Virus record (IMG/VR): IMGVR_UViG_2869970738_000002
Length of the DNA stretch: 10,901 nucleotides
DNA from: a virus
Lineage: Duplodnaviria > Heunggongvirae > Uroviricota > Caudoviricetes
Strand: one strand, 5' to 3'
Part shown: positions 4,498 to 10,901 of the stretch, one piece after another
Position numbering within the stretch: the first letter of the stretch is position 1
How the letters are laid out: every line of letters starts with the position of its first letter
Program-made: the position numbers and the translations under genes
Notes under the pieces: model-generated
Databases searched by the model: none
Told to the model about the DNA's origin: nothing
Seen by the model: only the letters and a program-made list of their open reading frames with translations

Positions 4498-4573
4498 GGC
4501 CCTTTAGCTCAGTGGTGAGAGCGAGCGACTCATAATCGCCAGGTCGCTGGTTCAAATCCAGCAAGGGCCACCA
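4498..4573 (+). tRNA. ileZ: tRNA with anticodon CAU (Ile2 lysidine-type or Met; ileZ-like of lambdoid phages)
   Basis: 76-nt cloverleaf folded by hand: acceptor GGCCCTT/AAGGGCC, D-arm GCTC...GAGC, anticodon loop CTCATAA, T-arm GCTGG-TTCAAAT-CCAGC, 3' ACCA. Confidence 0.85.
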
Positions 4574-4580
4574 TCACATA

Positions 4581-4657
4581 CCGCCATTAGCTCATCAGGA
4601 AAGAGCGCCAGCCTTCGAAGCTGGCTGCGCGGGGTTCAAGTCCCCGATGGCGGTCCA
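4581..4657 (+). tRNA. argN: tRNA-Arg (anticodon UCG; argN-like)
   Basis: 77-nt cloverleaf: acceptor CCGCCAT/ATGGCGG (unusual C1-G72 pair), anticodon stem CCAGC/GCTGG with loop CTTCGAA, T-arm CGGGG-TTCAAGT-CCCCG, 3' TCCA. Confidence 0.8.
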
Positions 4658-4670
4658 TTATCTGCATCAT

Positions 4671-4747
4671 GCGTTGTTAGCTCAGCCGGACAGAGCAATT
4701 GCCTTCTAAGCAATCGGTCACTGGTTCGAATCCAGTACAACGCGCCA
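4671..4747 (+). tRNA. argO: tRNA-Arg (anticodon UCU; argO-like)
   Basis: 77-nt cloverleaf: acceptor GCGTTGT/ACAACGC, anticodon stem ATTGC/GCAAT with loop CTTCTAA, T-arm ACTGG-TTCGAAT-CCAGT, 3' GCCA. Confidence 0.85.
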
Positions 4748-4787: not shown

Positions 4788-5013
4788 AAATGTCTCACAA
4801 TTCAGACGGTTGACTGTTGTCTGGTTTGCGGGGAGTTTGTTAAAAGAAACTGGCATGGTGAATCCCCCTGTGCGGAGGGGCAATCAGCGAGTAGGTATAT
4901 GGGATAATCGCGGATTCAGGTGCTGGTACTGAATTCACCGGGAGGCACCCGGCACCATGCAATGGCACATAGCGCCACTCTCCAGCCCCTCTCCGGAGGG
5001 GCTTTCTTGTGGG

Positions 5014-5043
5014 CAAAAAAAGCCCGCGCTGGGAGACGCGGGC
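5014..5043 (-). terminator. Minus-strand Rho-independent terminator with no annotated upstream gene
   Basis: On the minus strand GCCCGCG-TCTCCCAG-CGCGGGC (7-bp GC stem) is followed by TTTTTTT; the plus strand shows AAAAAAA 5014-5020 before the hairpin 5022-5043. Confidence 0.55.
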
Positions 5044-5236
5044 GGCAAGGAATAAACAACAAAACGTGAAGTAATATTTCAGCTGGCGAATAATACCCCA
5101 TAGTAATCACTCTGCGCAACTGCGCGGTCTTTTTCGAATTGCGGGCTGTCGTCTCTCTTCTGCCATTGTCCTGTAACTTCCGGACTTCAGCCCGCTCCTC
5201 ATTTTACTCACAATATTATCCCGGCCGGGAGGATTC

Positions 5237-6625
5237 ATGGCTTTTAAACACTATGATGTTGTCAGGGCGGCGTCGCCGTCAGATCTTGCGGAAAAGCTGA
5301 CACATAAACTGAAAGAGGGCTGGCAGCCGTTTGGTAGTCCGGTGGCCATAACCCCTTATACTCTGATGCAGGCGATTGCAGCAGAAGGTGCAGTAATCAG
5401 CGCCACCAGCGACCCGGAGTATTACTTTGTTGTGGTTCTGGCAGGGCAGTCAAACGGCATGTCGTATGGTGAAGGCCTTCCGCTGCCGGGGACATATGAC
5501 CGTCCGGACCCGCGTATTAAGCAACTGGCGCGTCGCAGTACGGTGACACCGGGCGGTGCAGCATGCAAATATAACGACATCATTCCGGCGGACCATTGTC
5601 TGCATGATGTGCAGGACATGAGCCGTCTTAACCATCCGAAAGCGGACCTGTCAAAGGGGCAGTACGGAACCGTGGGGCAGGGGCTGCATATCGCCAAAAA
5701 ACTGCTGCCGTTTATACCGGCGAATGCGGGCATTCTGCTGGTTCCATGCTGTCGTGGTGGTTCAGCGTTCACCACCGGAGCTGATGGCACATACAGTGAC
5801 GCGAGTGGTGCCTCGGAGAATTCAACCCGCTGGGGTGTGGACAAGCCGCTGTATAAGGACCTTATCGGTCGAACAAAAGCGGCACTGGAGAAGAACCCGA
5901 AAAATGTGCTGTTTGCCGTGGTGTGGATGCAGGGGGAATTTGATTTTGGCGGTACGCCGGCAAATCATGCCGCACAGTTTGGTGCGCTGGTTGATAAATT
6001 CCGTGCAGACCTGGCGGATATGGCAGGCCAGTGCGTCGGTGGCTCTGCTGGCGGTGTTCCCTGGATATGCGGGGACACGACGTATTTCTGGAAGCAGAAG
6101 AACGAATCCACGTACCAGACGGTGTACGGCAGCTATAAAAATAAAACGGAAAAGAATATCCATTTCGTACCGTTCATGACCGATGAGAACGGGGTGAATG
6201 TGCCGACGAACAAACCGGAAGAAGACCCGGACATTCCGGGTATCGGTTATTACGGTTCGAAATGGCGTGACAGCTCAGCCACCTGGACGTCACAGGACAG
6301 GGCGAGCCATTTCAGTTCATGGGCTCGCCGTGGGATTATTTCCGACCGTCTGGCAACGGCGATTCTGAGCTGCGCGGGTAAGTCTTCTGCGTTTGTTAAT
6401 GGTACTGCCGGGGTGGTTGTTCCAGACAGGCCGGTTACCACCTCAGAGTCTGTAATTTTTTACGATGCCAAAAAAGCTACAGACAATCAGCTGAAACCTT
6501 ATGGCTGGGACGGTATGTATGGCAGACGCACACTGGTTGATGACAGCGGCAATAAAGCTCTGCGAATTGAGAAAAATAACAGCTCGAAATCTTGGTCAAT
6601 GTACTGTGAGGTGTACTGGCAATAG
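5237..6625 (+). CDS. Prophage NanS-p-like sialate O-acetylesterase (DUF1737-like N-terminus plus SASA/SGNH GQSN domain); 3' end fused to IS600, probably C-terminally truncated
   Basis: ATG at 5237 preceded by GGGAGG. Protein has the motif VVLAGQSNGMSYGEG and an N-terminal MAFKHYDVVRA...LKEGWQPFGSP module. Sits directly downstream of the ileZ-argN-argO tRNAs, as nanS-p does in lambdoid and Stx prophages. The last 19 nt (6607-6625), including the stop, lie inside the IS600 terminal repeat. Confidence 0.75.
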   Translation: MAFKHYDVVRAASPSDLAEKLTHKLKEGWQPFGSPVAITPYTLMQAIAAEGAVISATSDPEYYFVVVLAGQSNGMSYGEGLPLPGTYDRPDPRIKQLARRSTVTPGGAACKYNDIIPADHCLHDVQDMSRLNHPKADLSKGQYGTVGQGLHIAKKLLPFIPANAGILLVPCCRGGSAFTTGADGTYSDASGASENSTRWGVDKPLYKDLIGRTKAALEKNPKNVLFAVVWMQGEFDFGGTPANHAAQFGALVDKFRADLADMAGQCVGGSAGGVPWICGDTTYFWKQKNESTYQTVYGSYKNKTEKNIHFVPFMTDENGVNVPTNKPEEDPDIPGIGYYGSKWRDSSATWTSQDRASHFSSWARRGIISDRLATAILSCAGKSSAFVNGTAGVVVPDRPVTTSESVIFYDAKKATDNQLKPYGWDGMYGRRTLVDDSGNKALRIEKNNSSKSWSMYCEVYWQ

Positions 6626-6649: not shown

Positions 6650-7468
6650 TTAAGCAGCCATCTGATGATATTTTTCCCTGAAGGCTGCCGGGGAGATATT
6701 CCCCAGACGAGAGTGACGACGCTGACGATTGTAGAAAATCTCAATGTATTCCCGTATTACTGAGATGGCTTCATCCCGGTTATTAAAACGATAGTGGCTC
6801 AGGCTCTCATTTTTCAGCGTTCCCCAGAAGCTTTCCATCGGAGCGTTGTCGTAACAGTGACCTTTACGCGACATTGATGTTTTCAGACCAGACTGCTCCT
6901 GTATGACCCGGTAATCGTATGCGCAGTACTGTGAACCTCGATCAGAGTGGTGGATTAGCCCGGCAGGTGGGCGCTGGCTCCTGAGCGCCATAAACAGGGC
7001 TTTACCTGTCAGCTCTTTTGTCATGCGCTCTCCCATGGCGTAGCCGACAATTTCGCACGTATAAACATCTTTGATGCCAGCGAGGTACAACCATCCCTCC
7101 TGTGTGGCAACATACGTCAGGTCCGCCACCCAGACCTGATTTGGTGCTGTAGGAGCGAACGTCTGGTTCAGCAGATTTGGCGCAACTGGCAGATTGTGGT
7201 TCGGGTTCGTAGTCGCTCTGAACTTGCGTTTCTGCTTACAGCGTAGCCTTAGCTCCTTACGAAGACGTGCCAGTCGGTCACGACCAACGATGATGCCATT
7301 CTCTGCCAGCTCCGTCTGGAGCCGCCGGGTTCCATATGTTTCGCGAGTGCGGATATGTGCCACCTTAATCTCCAGTTTTAGCCGCTCATCACTTTGTTTT
7401 CTGTCTGAGGGTTCATGCTGTACCCAGTTGTAATAACCGCTCCTGGATACACCAAATACCTGACACAT
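6650..7468 (-). CDS. IS600-like OrfB (DDE transposase catalytic subunit; expressed as an OrfAB fusion by -1 frameshift)
   Basis: 272-aa ORF with IS3-family DDE transposase features (...WVADLTYV...HHSDRGSQY...). The orfB frame is open upstream through the orfA stop, with a CTGAAAAAT slippery-like run near 7511-7519. Confidence 0.9.
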   Translation of the reverse strand: MCQVFGVSRSGYYNWVQHEPSDRKQSDERLKLEIKVAHIRTRETYGTRRLQTELAENGIIVGRDRLARLRKELRLRCKQKRKFRATTNPNHNLPVAPNLLNQTFAPTAPNQVWVADLTYVATQEGWLYLAGIKDVYTCEIVGYAMGERMTKELTGKALFMALRSQRPPAGLIHHSDRGSQYCAYDYRVIQEQSGLKTSMSRKGHCYDNAPMESFWGTLKNESLSHYRFNNRDEAISVIREYIEIFYNRQRRHSRLGNISPAAFREKYHQMAA

Positions 7469-7503
7469 CGCTTCAATGGGAAATTGTTGTCGCCATTGTT
7501 CGA

Positions 7504-7806
7504 TTAACGCGTATTTTTCAGCGACTCCTGTGCAAAATACGCTGTTGCTTTTTTTAATATATCTCGCTCAAGGCGAGCTTCATTTAACGCCTTACGCAGT
7601 TGCAGAATTTCAGATTCCAGTTCAGCCACCGTGCGGGAACCAGGAGTACCGAGCCCTTTTCTGGCGGCGGTAACCCATTGTCCTAAAGTGCCTTCAGGAA
7701 GGGATAATCGGGAAGCGCCTTCACTGATCGAAAGTTGATTTTCAAGAACCGTTCTGACAGCTTCGGCTTTGAACTCTTTAGAGTAACGTTGGTTTTTTCT
7801 GCTCAT
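7504..7806 (-). CDS. IS600-like OrfA (helix-turn-helix transposase subunit)
   Basis: 100-aa ORF MSRKNQRYSKEFKAEAVRTVLENQLSISEGASRLSLPEGTLGQWVTAARKG...; identical protein encoded at 10599-10901. Confidence 0.9.
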   Translation of the reverse strand: MSRKNQRYSKEFKAEAVRTVLENQLSISEGASRLSLPEGTLGQWVTAARKGLGTPGSRTVAELESEILQLRKALNEARLERDILKKATAYFAQESLKNTR

Positions 7807-7870: not shown

Positions 7871-8359
7871 TATGTCGGGCGCTCATCCGGTATAAGGGAT
7901 CGCGTTCTTAATATCAATGAAACCGCTGATGTATGGTCTTATGCTTACGGTAATAATTTGCTAACTCTGTCATCAATATATAACCGAAGAATAATGGTTA
8001 TCTGCCTGGTGTTTGGTTGCCGACAGCAGGAGGCGAGGCTATCCACCTGGGACGAATGGGATTTAAAAAACTGGGTATGGACAGTCCCAAAAGAGCACAG
8101 CAAAAACAAGGAGGCTATAGTAAGGCCTGTTCCTGACGGAATAAAACAATGGATCGTTAATCTTTACGCAGAAACAAAAAATCGCGGTTATGTTGTCGGT
8201 TGTGCTTTGCAAAGGGCGACAATAACAGGGGCTGCAAACAGAATATGCAGGCGTCTTGGTCATGATACTAATGGCTTGTGGTGCATACATGATTTCAGGC
8301 GCACATTTTCCACTACGCTTAATGATATGGGGGCGGATCCTTATATTGTCGAACTTCTT
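7871..8359 (+). pseudogene. Internal fragment of a second, different tyrosine integrase, truncated at both ends by IS600 and IS1
   Basis: Frame is open from the IS600 boundary to the IS1 boundary. Encodes ...ICLVFGCRQQEARLSTWDEWDLKNWVWTVP...HDFRRTFSTTLNDMGADPYIVELLG, corresponding to the Int catalytic core (compare lambda AVVTGQRVGDLCEMKWSD...HELRSLSARLY...LLGH). The fragment ends before the LLGH histidine and the catalytic Tyr. Confidence 0.7.
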
Positions 8360-8414
8360 GGTGATGCTGCCAACTTACTGATTTAGTGTATGATGGTGTT
8401 TTTGAGGTGCTCCA

Positions 8415-8690
8415 GTGGCTTCTGTTTCTATCAGCTGTCCCTCCTGTTCAGCTACTGACGGGGTGGTGCGTAACGGCAAAAGCACTGCCGGACATCAGCG
8501 CTATCTCTGCTCTCACTGCCGTAAAACATGGCAACTGCAGTTCACTTACACCGCTTCTCAACCCGGTACGCACCAGAAAATTATTGATATGGCCATGAAT
8601 GGCGTTGGATGCCGGGCAACTGCACGCATTATGGGCGTTAGCCTCAACACGATTTTACGTCACTTAAAAAACTCAGGCCGCAGTCGGTAA
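8415..8690 (+). CDS. insA: IS1 InsA
   Basis: 91-aa [46 protein letters not shown]... Confidence 0.95.
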
Positions 8691-8734
8691 CCTCGCGCAT
8701 ACAGCCGGGCAGTGACGTCATCGTCTGCGCGGAA

Positions 8735-9112
8735 ATGGACGAACAGTGGGGATACGTCGGGGCTAAATCGCGCCAGCGCTGGCTGTTTTACGCGTATGAC
8801 AGGCTCCGGAAGACGGTTGTTGCGCACGTATTCGGTGAACGCACTATGGCGACGCTGGGGCGTCTTATGAGCTTGCTGTCACCCTTTGACGTGGTGATAT
8901 GGATGACGGATGGCTGGCCACTGTATGAATCCCGCCTGAAGGGAAAGCTGCACGTAATCAGCAAGCGATATACGCAGCGAATTGAGCGGCATAACCTGAA
9001 TCTGAGGCAGCACCTGGCACGGCTGGGACGGAAGTCGCTGTCGTTCTCAAAATCGGTGGAGCTGCATGACAAAGTCATCGGGCATTATCTGAACATAAAA
9101 CACTATCAATAA
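8735..9112 (+). CDS. insB: IS1 InsB frame (C-terminal part of the InsAB' transposase; the true product arises by -1 frameshift at 8664-8672)
   Basis: Track [95 protein letters not shown]...HYQ. A TAG at 8639-8641 in this frame lies upstream of the frameshift site and does not affect the fusion product. Confidence 0.85.
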
Positions 9113-9127
9113 GTTGGAGTCATTACC

Positions 9128-9521
9128 GGCGTTGCAGATGCTTGATGATGATGAAAAGGGAGTAAATTTAACTTACACCCCAGGAGGAAATCAGAATATG
9201 AGAATTATCTCTGAGTCAGGTTTCTACAAACTAATAGCCCGCAGCCGCAAAGCAACGACGCCTGGCACATTTGCTCATCGTTTCAGTAACTGGGTATTCA
9301 GAAATGTGATACCAGGTATCAGAAAAACGGGGACTTATGGTATCCCGTGGGGTGCATTACAGGATTTTTCCCGCCGTAAAGAGCAATATCAAATAAGTGC
9401 CAGCGAGAAGGGGAGGGAGCTACAGGCATGTAAGCGCAAAAAGCGTGAGCAGGAGGAAGAAGAAAAAACGCTGATACGTGAATATCAGCCTGAGTTTTAC
9501 TTTGGTAACCGCATTCAGTGA
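9128..9521 (+). pseudogene. Bro-N domain (phage antirepressor-like) protein, N-terminally truncated by IS1
   Basis: Native sequence begins at the IS1 boundary: ...LDDDEKGVNLTYTPGGNQNMRIISESGFYKLIARSRKATTPGTFAHRFSNWVFRNVIPGIRKTGTYG matches the conserved C-terminal half of Bro-N domains (pattern LDDDEKGV...IISE.GLY.L..RSRK...F..WV...V.P.IRK.G.Y). The first 5 codons of track ORF 9114..9521 are IS1-derived. Confidence 0.6.
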
Positions 9522-9551
9522 CAAAACAAAGGCGACCGCAAAAGGGTCGCC
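9521..9551 (-). terminator. Rho-independent terminator for the minus-strand two-gene operon, convergent with the Bro-N fragment
   Basis: Hairpin GGCGACC-GCAAAAG-GGTCGCC (9531-9551); on the minus strand it is followed by TTTGTTTTGT (plus ACAAAACAAA, 9521-9530). Confidence 0.5.
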
Positions 9552-9617
9552 AGTGGGAACAAGGGAAAACAAAAGCATCACCAACAATGCCACATTTGCG
9601 GCTGGTGGGCAATGTGA

Positions 9618-9797
9618 TCAGTCAGATTTGGTTCGTTCCAAGGTTTGCAACGAGAGCTTTTTCCTGTGCTCTTTAAGGAATTTCTCAAGAGCAAACGAAC
9701 AAGGTGCGAATCTTTCTGATTCATGTTCATGCGCTATATTTTTGCGTCGTCTCTTACGAGTTGGTGATGGTGTTTTGGTTGATTCTGTGTCGCTCAT
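9618..9797 (-). CDS. Hypothetical 59-aa highly basic protein, not in the supplied ORF track; second gene of the minus-strand operon
   Basis: Hand translation of the minus strand: ATG at 9797-9795, MSDTESTKTPSPTRKRRRKNIAHEHESERFAPCSFALEKFLKEHRKKLSLQTLERTKSD, TGA at 9620-9618. AGGA lies about 8 nt upstream of the ATG. It starts 57 nt after the stop of the 101-aa gene and ends 67 nt before the terminator. Contains AGA x2, CGA x2, AGG and ATA codons. Confidence 0.35.
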   Translation of the reverse strand: MSDTESTKTPSPTRKRRRKNIAHEHESERFAPCSFALEKFLKEHRKKLSLQTLERTKSD

Positions 9798-9854
9798 GGT
9801 GCTGTCCTGTAAAGCAATGCGCCTGCGTTCCTCAAACTATGGCGCTGATATTGG

Positions 9855-10160
9855 CTATTCATGCTCTTTGACCTTGCGTCGCTGGAGTTCTTCACGCGCG
9901 ACGGTGACGAGTTGCCCGATCTCCTCGGCTGCTTTGATGCCGATTTGTTCGACCTTAGCCAGGGCATCCAGTGACGACACAAGGGGATTTTCTCCGCTGC
10001 CTTCTGCTTGGCGGCGGGCCATTTCTCCGCGCATGGCGGTTACGATAAATCCGGCATTGCTTTCACCGTCCAGCTTAACGGATTCCATCCCTTGCATAAC
10101 ATCTAGTGGGACTCTGACAGTTGTCAGTTGTGATTTTGCGTTTTTGTTAGCCGTTGCCAT
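9855..10160 (-). CDS. Hypothetical 101-aa protein with an Arc/Mnt/CopG-like ribbon-helix-helix N-terminus (putative DNA-binding regulator)
   Basis: ATG at 10160-10158 with AGGAG 8 nt upstream. The N-terminus LTTVRVPLDVMQGMESVKLDGESNAGFIVTAMRGEMARR fits the RHH pattern of beta-strand, helix, G-x-S-x-N turn, helix (compare Arc ...FNLRWPREVLDLVRKVAEENGRSVNSEIYQRVMESF). The C-terminal half is predicted helical and charged. Confidence 0.55.
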   Translation of the reverse strand: MATANKNAKSQLTTVRVPLDVMQGMESVKLDGESNAGFIVTAMRGEMARRQAEGSGENPLVSSLDALAKVEQIGIKAAEEIGQLVTVAREELQRRKVKEHE

Positions 10161-10180
10161 TTCTGAAACTCCTAATCATC

Positions 10181-10260
10181 GGTGTGTTTCAGTATACACA
10201 AAAAAAGAAATACAAAAAGCCTTGACGTGTGTTTCATGCGCTCATAACATGAAACACACC
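10181..10260. promoter_or_regulatory. Divergent promoter region with three copies of GTGTGTTTCA (two direct, one inverted), a putative operator array
   Basis: GTGTGTTTCA at 10182-10191 and 10227-10236, with the inverted copy TGAAACACAC at 10250-10259. Copies 2 and 3 form a perfect 12-bp inverted repeat (10227-10238 / 10248-10259, 9-bp spacer) overlapping a plus-strand promoter TTGACG (10222-10227), 17 bp, TAACAT (10245-10250). Copy 1 lies between a minus-strand TATACT -10-like element and the RHH gene RBS. Confidence 0.4.
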
Positions 10261-10350
10261 GAAAGGATTGTTGAAATACAAAGAGCAACGCCCCGCAGTG
10301 CTGGGAACACATACGGGGCGTCTAACCAACAACGTAAACTAGGAGCCGTT

Positions 10351-10542
10351 ATGGTTGCTGTAAATCATATACCACACCTTGTACACACACAAACGGCCTT
10401 TGTGTGGCGTTTTCTGGCACTGAGTGCCGGAGAATCTCAAATCATCCACGTAACCGCCTGGACGGAACGCGAAGCGCGTAGCCGTTGCCCGTCCGGTTGT
10501 GTTGCTGTATTCGCTGCAAAAATCCGCCAGGGAGTGAGGTAG
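10351..10542 (+). CDS. Hypothetical small protein, divergent from the RHH gene; 3' end runs into IS600, probably truncated
   Basis: ATG at 10351 with AGGAG 5 nt upstream (10341-10345): MVAVNHIPHLVHTQTAFVWRFLALSAGESQIIHVTAWTEREARSRCPSGCVAVFAAKIRQG.... The last codons and the stop (10540-10542) are inside the IS600 left end, which begins at 10535. It is the 3' part of the long track ORF 9478..10542, whose upstream portion I consider non-coding. Confidence 0.35.
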   Translation: MVAVNHIPHLVHTQTAFVWRFLALSAGESQIIHVTAWTEREARSRCPSGCVAVFAAKIRQGVR

Positions 10543-10901
10543 CCTGAGTTTAACGGACACTCCTTCCTGAAATAGAATGGCATCAGAAGGAGCTAATAAT
10601 GAGCAGAAAAAACCAACGTTACTCTAAAGAGTTCAAAGCCGAAGCTGTCAGAACGGTTCTTGAAAATCAACTTTCGATCAGTGAAGGCGCTTCCCGATTA
10701 TCCCTTCCTGAAGGCACTTTAGGACAATGGGTTACCGCCGCCAGAAAAGGGCTCGGTACTCCTGGTTCCCGCACGGTGGCTGAACTGGAATCTGAAATTC
10801 TGCAACTGCGTAAGGCGTTAAATGAAGCTCGCCTTGAGCGAGATATATTAAAAAAAGCAACAGCGTATTTTGCACAGGAGTCGCTGAAAAATACGCGTTA
10901 A
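10535..10901 (+). mobile_element. Second IS600-like IS3-family copy, partial in window (left 367 bp), inverted relative to the copy at 6607-7870
   Basis: Starts TGAGGTAGCCTGAGTTTAACGGACACTCCTTCC..., identical to the reverse complement of 7870 downward; flanking sequence diverges exactly at 10535. Continues past the window end. Confidence 0.85.
10599..10901 (+). CDS. IS600-like OrfA (second copy)
   Basis: 100-aa ORF identical to the protein encoded at 7504-7806 on the minus strand; stop TAA at 10899-10901. Confidence 0.9.
   Translation: MSRKNQRYSKEFKAEAVRTVLENQLSISEGASRLSLPEGTLGQWVTAARKGLGTPGSRTVAELESEILQLRKALNEARLERDILKKATAYFAQESLKNTR

Follow-up and report, generated by a model that had tools for sequence, protein, structure and literature searches.

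Genes and operators of the divergent module

The DNA analysed here is a stretch of 10,901 nucleotides (the window) from the IMG/VR virus record IMGVR_UViG_2869970738_000002, assigned to the Caudoviricetes. Between a copy of the insertion sequence (IS) IS1 and the left end of an IS600, it carries a compact divergent module resembling the early-control region of a phage satellite. On the minus strand lie a gene for a YlcI/YnfO-family protein, a likely ribbon-helix-helix (RHH) protein, and a 59-aa open reading frame (ORF). On the plus strand lies an Icd-like gene of the P4 Kil family (hereafter icd), whose predicted promoter is overlapped by candidate operators. The features of the module are listed below.

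9475-10542 (+): stop-free frame of 355 codons, apparent counterpart of P4 eta, antisense to the 59-aa ORF and the RHH gene
9551-9531 (-): predicted intrinsic terminator of the RHH/59-aa operon, a strong hairpin whose 7-bp stem includes 6 GC pairs, plus a T-run
9618-9797 (-): ORF for a 59-aa basic, predicted helical protein (15 of 59 residues lysine or arginine), downstream of the RHH gene
9855-10160 (-): 101-aa YlcI/YnfO-family protein, candidate repressor, with an N-terminal RHH-like domain and a long C-terminal helix
10179-10191 (+): candidate operator O1 (TCGGTGTGTTTCA), abutting the -10 of the RHH promoter and covering the predicted transcription start
10191-10196 (-): probable -10 hexamer of the RHH promoter, TATACT on the minus strand
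10222-10250 (+): predicted promoter of the icd-like/replication operon, TTGACG-17-TAACAT, analogue of P4 PLE
10227-10238 (+): candidate operator O2 (GTGTGTTTCATG), directly after the -35 element of the icd promoter
10248-10259 (-): candidate operator O3 (CATGAAACACAC on the plus strand), overlapping the icd -10 element and the predicted start site
10288-10321 (+): leader hairpin of icd, conserved (ACGCCCCG...CGGGGCGT; inner stem GTG/CAC), present in both the minimum-free-energy and the centroid fold
10351-10542 (+): Icd-like gene (P4 Kil family), 63 codons; originally 65, the last three replaced by IS600

The two minus-strand ORFs, their terminator, the plus-strand promoter and three exact copies of GTGTGTTTCA had all been reported in a first-pass annotation, and all are present. 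The copies, exactly three in number, lie at 10182-10191 (+), 10227-10236 (+) and 10250-10259 (-). When one mismatch was allowed, the window held five matches, three of them exact, against 0.83 expected. Copies 2 and 3 extend to GTGTGTTTCATG and CATGAAACACAC, forming 12-nt inverted arms with 9 nt between them, and copies 1 and 3 share the 13 nt of TCGGTGTGTTTCA. The palindrome had been placed over the spacer of the plus-strand promoter; the 12-nt arms are there, but they do not occupy the spacer only: one abuts the -35, and the other covers the -10 and the predicted start.

Comparison of related loci gave these repeats their significance. The icd promoter, a -35 TTGAC with a TAAnnT -10 at 17 nt, is kept in all loci, and the -10 of the RHH promoter is kept as TATACT, TATAAT or TATATT across genera and immunity types. 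The -35, the -10 and the three repeat positions are retained in loci as far apart as those of E. coli and of Xenorhabdus, Photorhabdus and Serratia, and the third repeat adjoins a conserved TATACT/TATAAT on the other strand. Nine regulator variants, found in the two remotest genera and among the E. coli loci, each have their own repeat at the same promoter positions. The variant repeats are GTGTGTTTC, GTGTAAG, GTGTT(C/T)AACAC, GTGGGCCACACC, GTGGCTGACA, TGTGCGCACA and ATGGTAATTACC, with ATGCACACC / ATACACACC in the Pantoea and Lelliottia variants. Across the nine variants, the repeat sequence changes along with the N-terminal region of the regulator. Because the positions are conserved across genera and the sequence changes together with the regulator variant, the repeats go beyond chance. 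This co-variation is the strongest evidence that the regulator binds these sites, as it probably does, and the pattern fits that of heteroimmune repressor/operator pairs. Since O2 and O3 cover the core of the icd promoter, repression of that promoter is implied; O1 covers the predicted start of the regulator's own gene, which implies autoregulation. The comparative data thus strengthen the first-pass picture of a small, probably RHH regulator with a shared operator and a divergent promoter. A separate direct repeat, GAAATACAAA(A/G)AGC, flanks the icd promoter at 10207-10220 and 10273-10286, 66 bp apart. A similar ATACAAA motif was seen in the Xenorhabdus and Photorhabdus loci and is absent from other E. 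coli immunity types.

The 101-aa regulator was assigned to its family by the NCBIfam model YlcI_YnfO_N (NF041551), matched over residues 9-50 with 58.1 bits (cut-off 30; E 6.5e-16), and it also matched phrog_6522 (6e-64). No Pfam model scored above cut-off in a search with this protein; the variant regulator of one related E. coli locus (L020) reached 28.3 bits against Pfam DUF3950 (cut-off 25). Homologues are spread over the Enterobacterales, some of them named at source as "Arc-like DNA binding domain". In the AlphaFold2 model of the monomer, an extended N-terminus is followed by helices at residues 19-28, 35-55 and 59-100. The mean predicted local distance difference test score (pLDDT) was 80.7, with values of 83-89 for the N-terminus and the first two helices, and RHH domains superposed at ~2 A. 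This order would agree with the first-pass RHH call. An hhalign comparison with P22 Arc was in register but weak (single-comparison E 0.004, 8% probability). Given the predicted shape, the weak alignment to Arc and the lack of a significant Pfam match, assignment of the protein as a ribbon-helix-helix DNA-binding protein is likely, not proven. The only PDB profile match, a weak one of the C-terminal segment (E 0.018), had suggested a helix-hairpin-helix domain; this reading was dropped because AlphaFold2 predicts one continuous C-terminal helix.

Replacements in the RHH gene are conservative in the sense frame (mean BLOSUM62 +0.09). Short regulator variants of 59 aa (L015-L019) consist of the RHH domain and a shared RRQRRKAKE tail, and lack a 42-residue helical insert carried by the 101-aa long form; in O157:H7, an Arc-like 57-aa variant stands in the regulator's place. 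C-terminal tails are swapped among variants, ELQQRGIEPKG for example being found on both Arc-like and YlcI-like proteins. A genome scan with the single 101-aa protein gave no confirmed loci, and the same scan repeated with an alignment gave 10. The related locus L001 holds a second YlcI/YnfO-family gene (5690-5923; 77 aa) in its host lambdoid prophage, where it adjoins a DUF1398 gene upstream of nohD and has no icd-like neighbour, so the family occurs in at least two genomic contexts.

Downstream of the RHH gene, after a gap of 57 nt, the 59-aa ORF is open with a conserved AGGA-N7-ATG start in 10 of the 10 E. coli loci examined. It is found behind long, short and Arc-like regulators alike, and is annotated by the Prokaryotic Genome Annotation Pipeline (PGAP) in some genomes. 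Its product matched phrog_21027 (5e-15). Homologues fell into 29 protein clusters, every one of them from Escherichia, and the loci of Xenorhabdus, Photorhabdus, Serratia, Pantoea and Lelliottia lack the gene. For its own frame, the ratio of non-synonymous to synonymous substitution rates (dN/dS) came to 0.30; the antisense frame with the same wobble positions gave 0.39, and the remaining frames ~1. Mean BLOSUM62 of replacements was +0.14 in its own frame as against -1.12 in the antisense frame, and it was this replacement quality that settled the strand of the gene as minus. Structure prediction gave a helical protein with moderate confidence. There was no Pfam or PADLOC match, the PDB sequence search was insignificant (E 0.86), and a fold search returned nothing. 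Because of the selection at the protein level, the ORF is probably genuine, an accessory gene of the repressor operon, though lineage-specific and found in Escherichia only; we rate this as rather likely from the comparative data. The co-transcribed small partner gene of the first-pass annotation is thus plausible. The operon's terminator has no T-run when read on the plus strand and should act on the minus strand only, which makes plus-strand read-through plausible.

The Icd-like gene and the stop-free plus-strand frame

The plus-strand gene was identified with the NCBIfam model phage_ICD_like (NF033153), which its product matched with 63.8 bits (cut-off 25; E 1.1e-17). The same model recognises the P4 Kil ORF, whose 65 codons close the old "cI protein" ORF of P4, with 76.1 bits (1.6e-21). 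BLASTP of the Icd-like protein against P4 Kil found no match, so the link between the two is visible at profile level only. A tblastn search of a phage collection with the Icd-like protein returned one record only, an induced Escherichia prophage. The first-pass annotation had described this gene as cut off by IS600. It is indeed hit by the element, but is not badly truncated: only the last three codons are lost, the C-terminus changing from ...IRQGVSHA* to ...IRQGVR*. The un-interrupted homologous loci sought to recover the full gene were found, and the intact divergent gene in them has 65 codons.

A conserved promoter, Shine-Dalgarno sequence and ATG mark out the short icd gene, and in every intact relative this promoter heads the whole icd-to-primase operon. 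The hairpin in its leader is conserved as well: six genera contributed 14 distinct sequences, in which 87% of cells were paired and two pairs showed compensatory changes. An almost invariant CT(A/T/C)ACCA follows it (motif at 10322-10330). No Rfam match was found for the hairpin (10288-10321). The Icd/Kil-like PHROG families phrog_1743 and phrog_6196 carry the label "transcriptional repressor", as does the old "cI protein" ORF in the P4 RefSeq record (L021 8168-8584). As the true P4 cI is a C4-type RNA at 8420-8507, this label is probably a propagated misannotation.

The stop-free frame of 9475-10542 is in phase with icd and crosses the operator/promoter region, with the icd promoter inside it. 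It has no stop in 291 codons, as against 16 in each of the other plus-strand frames. In the equivalent antisense frame of 34 neighbouring genes, stops amounted to 3.5% per codon and one gene of the 34 was stop-free, and in shuffled copies of the intergenic region the frame was open 2% of the time. Every relative examined keeps 271-433 codons of it open, across non-homologous sequence and all operator variants. Translation signals are present at several loci: a Shine-Dalgarno sequence with an ATG overlaps the upstream stop codon in L012 and L016, or lies 11 nt after an upstream helix-turn-helix (HTH) gene in L013 and L015, and in several loci the start of the frame overlaps or closely trails an upstream Bro or AlpA-like gene.

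The amino acid sequence of the long frame behaves differently. Its replacements are as non-conservative as those of non-coding frames (mean BLOSUM62 -0.93 and -1.12), and its N-terminal 291 residues have no family match and are unrelated between genera. Counts of synonymous and non-synonymous changes on the two strands (7 versus 6 over the 59-aa ORF, 38 versus 26 over the RHH gene) gave no separation because both frames share wobble positions; BLOSUM62 replacement quality was the measure that separated the strands. For the part of the long frame without an antisense gene, there were too few differences for dN/dS. The possibility raised at first pass, that the plus-strand frame (given there as 354 aa) is what is conserved, stands as regards openness, which holds in all relatives, and falls as regards the protein, whose sequence is not under selection. 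As the frame is conserved open, its amino acid sequence is without selection and the minus-strand genes are under selection, the comparisons point to a layer comparable to P4 eta that overlaps the RHH gene and does not take its place. From the selection for openness and the P4 precedent, we infer that its translation may prevent transcription termination.

PGAP calls over this region are inconsistent in the E. coli loci L012-L020. In some genomes a small minus-strand hypothetical protein is called; in others there is a plus-strand pseudo "hypothetical" or "BRO-N" fragment, or an Icd-like coding sequence (CDS) of 116-157 aa overlapping the RHH gene. The conserved stop-free antisense frame would explain this disagreement of annotation pipelines.

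Relatives of the locus and its decay by insertion sequences

The segment 9400-10538 is 99.8% identical to chromosomal loci of 74 complete E. coli genomes. Partial matches to it were found in 1388 of 5426 complete E. coli genomes, and the module occurs in roughly one quarter to one third of them. A search of the phage collection with this segment gave no close match, and plasmids gave only partial matches, in four. Window positions 9127-10538 and 7871-8359 together match the satellite of strain APEC O2-211 at 99.8-99.9% identity. That element sits within a lambdoid prophage, in its portal gene. In order, it encodes an integrase, an AlpA-like HTH protein, a BRO-N protein, the YlcI/YnfO protein (opposite strand), the Icd-like protein and small ORFs; then follow DUF4222, primase, single-stranded DNA-binding protein (SSB), major capsid, decoration protein and the small terminase subunit (TerS). 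The window features that flank the module are the following.

7871-8359 (+): internal fragment of a tyrosine integrase gene, 99.8% identical to L001 10587-11075, within the annotated integrase
8360-9126 (+): IS1 copy, occupying the gap between two L001-matching blocks; L001 11076-11727 is missing
9127-9521 (+): C-terminal remnant of a BRO-N domain gene ("Bro zone"), Pfam Bro-N 4.2e-08, identical to the end of the L001 BRO-N CDS
10539-10901 (+): left end of IS600 with the start of orfA (ORF 10599-10901); homology to L001 stops at 10538

The module is read as an IS-bracketed remnant because homology to L001 is broken by IS1 and ends where IS600 starts. IS1, with an InsA-like ORF at 8415-8690 and an InsB-like ORF at 8735-9112, has taken the place of the integrase 3' end, of the AlpA-like HTH gene and of the 5' portion of BRO-N. 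The satellite genes left in the window are the integrase fragment, the 3' end of the BRO-N gene and the regulatory module only. Intact relatives show the gene order of Gram-negative phage-inducible chromosomal islands (PICIs) and capsid-forming PICIs (cf-PICIs), that is int, alpA, primase/replication, and capsid with packaging, and they match the zone layout described for helper-embedded and capsid-forming Gram-negative PICIs (PMC10111431). By sequence comparison, the locus is the control region of a Gram-negative PICI/P4-like satellite that has decayed here, and the window copy likely has no satellite function.

Several further observations were made in the window and the relatives. Two inverted IS600 copies, at 6650-7806 (-) and 10539-10901 (+), bracket the whole satellite remnant. 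Three consecutive tRNA genes lie at 4498-4744, followed by a full-length match to the small RNA STnc100 at 4824-5014 (139 bits); an OmrA-B-like match at 5015-5103 (-) is weak, its 23.7 bits being under the family threshold. Rfam int-alpA RNA motifs (RF02996, 39-59 bits) were found ~3-3.8 kb from the RHH gene in L003, L004, L005 and L009, in elements of Photorhabdus, Xenorhabdus and Pantoea. One 16.6-kb contig of Xenorhabdus vietnamensis holds two copies of the module (L007 and L008), which lie within ~5 kb of each other and in opposite orientation, with different regulator and operator variants.

A candidate immunity switch and its alternatives

Taken together, the sequence comparisons make it probable that immunity and early control of a Gram-negative PICI (helper-embedded or capsid-forming type) are switched by this region, which is laid out as in P4 and survives here as a remnant bracketed by IS1 and IS600. 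This reading builds on the synteny, the family memberships, the three repeats, the co-variation of repeat and regulator and the conserved long open frame, all of which are established. The first-pass annotation had been unable to assign the unit to a known family and had seen in it the best candidate for a genuinely undescribed system; with the YlcI/YnfO and Icd-like memberships and a PICI/P4-like regulatory zone now recognised, the unit is instead a P4/PICI early-control region, though an uncharacterised variant of it.

In such a switch, the YlcI/YnfO protein would bind O2 and O3 as an RHH oligomer, bracketing the icd -35/-10, and would keep the Kil/Icd-like gene and the downstream replication operon silent. 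The same regulator would bind O1 at its own transcription start and limit its own synthesis, and the 59-aa protein would be an Escherichia-specific accessory product of the repressor operon. Upon helper induction, transcription of the upstream AlpA/Bro operon would read through the region on the plus strand. The stop-free frame would let ribosomes trail the polymerase, like P4 Eta, so that no Rho-dependent termination occurs. Read-through would then pass the repressed promoter and collide head-on with the repressor gene, and the switch would flip. A protein repressor would in this way have replaced the RNA immunity (cI/C4) of P4.

A broader proposal would give a large class of Gram-negative PICIs their missing master repressors in the YlcI/YnfO- and Arc-type RHH proteins, with numerous heteroimmune specificities of repressor and operator. 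Their genes would lie antisense in an eta-like ORF that need only stay open, and upon helper induction AlpA-driven, ribosome-protected read-through of this ORF would bypass the repressed promoter and, through head-on transcription, also shut off the repressor. We put this forward tentatively and regard it as possible but doubtful.

Several points weigh against the immunity-switch reading. Published work on E. coli PICIs centres induction on the activator AlpA and reports no repressor, and in that light the RHH protein may control only Kil and replication gene dosage. A consensus scanner missed the RHH promoter, whose -35 element is poor. The long frame is out of phase with icd, through indels, in 5 of ~20 loci (L002, L003, L010, L013 and L019), where it still ends ~15-30 nt from the icd ATG. 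In the window and L001, it offers only GTG/TTG starts without a clear Shine-Dalgarno sequence, and in L020 it starts 160 nt past the upstream gene. Finally, with AlpA, both ends of the integrase gene and everything downstream of icd gone, the switch is useless for a satellite life cycle in the present copy.

The AlpA literature also feeds the most serious of the alternatives, in which the RHH protein is a local safety catch on a toxic Kil/Icd-like gene, or a Cro-like lytic regulator, rather than the satellite's master maintenance repressor, and induction proceeds by AlpA alone. Published genetics show AlpA to be required and activating, deletion of the adjacent gene c1499 or c1500 of EcCICFT073 left transfer unaffected, and the cf-PICI study describes AlpA-only induction. 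Yet the putatively repressed promoter heads the entire icd-to-primase operon in every intact relative, and immunity determinants would be expected to diversify, as operator and regulator do here, into many specificities. On balance we find this alternative unlikely, though it deserves more weight than the two that follow and the evidence draws no sharp line between it and the immunity switch. The first-pass annotation had compared the architecture with toxin-antitoxin loci, which would make the RHH protein an autoregulating antitoxin, the 59-aa protein a new small toxin and the divergent gene incidental. The layout is classic for a type II system, with the RHH gene first, a small partner second after the 57-nt gap and a shared terminator, and the 59-aa ORF is under protein-level selection. 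But in Xenorhabdus, Photorhabdus, Serratia, Pantoea and Lelliottia, the RHH gene stands without such a partner, the gap to the next gene in Serratia being only 127 nt, and homologues of the 59-aa protein are confined to Escherichia; the protein itself matches no toxin or defence family in Pfam or PADLOC, nor any PDB sequence or solved fold. Two of the three candidate operators, moreover, lie on the divergent promoter and would serve the replication operon, not only the regulator's own operon, and matches to antitoxins reflect the shared RHH fold only. A toxin-antitoxin role is accordingly very improbable in our judgement. A partition-like system, also mentioned at first pass, was rejected, since neither a ParA- nor a ParB-like gene is present and the repeats lie on promoters.

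Least probable of all, and hardly credible, is that the two minus-strand ORFs are shadow ORFs in a frame that shares wobble positions with a genuine plus-strand gene. In its favour, no stop interrupts the long frame in any relative examined, PGAP has in several genomes placed long or pseudo Icd-like CDSs over the region, and the 188-residue family phrog_29966 has the Icd domain at its end. Replacement quality speaks against it, since the values for the long frame are those of non-coding sequence and the values for the two minus-strand genes are positive. The 291 N-terminal residues lack a family and any relationship between genera, the phase with icd is broken by indels in the five loci named above, and the short icd gene is defined by its own conserved signals. 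The family of the RHH ORF, furthermore, occurs elsewhere in lambdoid prophages, and the ORF itself has a confident fold prediction.

If the immunity-switch reading holds, its interest lies in the gap it would fill. Fillol-Salom et al. (2018) considered a global repressor in Gram-negative PICIs unclear and AlpA the activator, and the cf-PICI paper gives induction via AlpA only and does not mention a repressor. With no master repressor established for these islands, the module is a concrete candidate with built-in specificity variants. A 2026 survey of Enterobacter cloacae cf-PICIs merely lists "YlcI/YnfO family protein" and "Icd" as accessory genes; in the literature searched, no function was assigned to the PICI YlcI/YnfO gene, no paper linked PICIs with RHH proteins and none after 2018 named a master repressor for the Gram-negative islands. 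What appears to be new here is a repressor operon nested antisense in an eta-like frame, and a protein repressor with heteroimmune operators in place of an immunity RNA. If true, the P4 eta principle, translation as an anti-termination device, would extend to a large satellite group, and in the module P4 RNA immunity would have been reinvented on a protein basis, with the repressor nested in antisense.

Among known systems, P4 is the closest in layout, its left operon running from PLL through the vis/alpA homologue, eta/kil, the cI RNA and epsilon to the alpha primase. In both, the operon behind the early promoter opens with a Kil/Icd-family ORF of 65 codons and reaches a primase. This ORF forms the in-phase end of a much longer one, which begins upstream of the promoter, beside an alpA/Bro gene. 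PMC10111431, citing Forti et al. (1999), describes P4 Kil as a shortened form of Eta, whose start lies ahead of the internal promoter and is coupled to the alpA homologue, and reports that Eta translation keeps late read-through transcripts from terminating. The immunity itself differs. In P4 it is an RNA (C4/cI with seqA/isrK targets), whereas here there is a divergent protein gene with candidate DNA operators. Searches with the Rfam models RF01695, RF01394 and RF03163 left the window without a C4 or isrK match even when E values up to 10 were admitted, and gave none in 19 related loci; P4 as positive control gave clear C4, isrK and c4-a1b1 matches (74.9 bits). The repressor gene (together with the 59-aa ORF in Escherichia) lies antisense within the long ORF, an arrangement without counterpart in the P4 annotation, and the long ORF has 270-430 codons as against 199 in P4. 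P1 immI (c4 RNA - icd - ant) is similar in that an Icd-family gene, by the name of the NCBIfam model, comes first under immunity control; it differs in the c4 RNA, which the window lacks.

With the Gram-negative PICIs EcCICFT073, EcCIEDL933 and 11capE, the intact relatives have the int, AlpA-like, Bro-zone, replication and capsid/TerS zones in common, and one of them is inserted in a prophage portal gene. P22 Arc/Mnt (immI) offers a likeness for the regulator, with a small RHH repressor, repeats overlapping promoters and divergent transcription units; binding is predicted in the present case, and the similarity of the 101-aa protein to Arc is in register but weak. A BRO-N gene close by is another likeness to phage RHH repressors, BRO-N domains being linked with antirepressors. 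In Gram-positive PICIs, the master repressor Stl and its removal by helper proteins define helper sensing, and it is this divergent master repressor, Stl of the SaPIs, that the candidate described here would functionally resemble.

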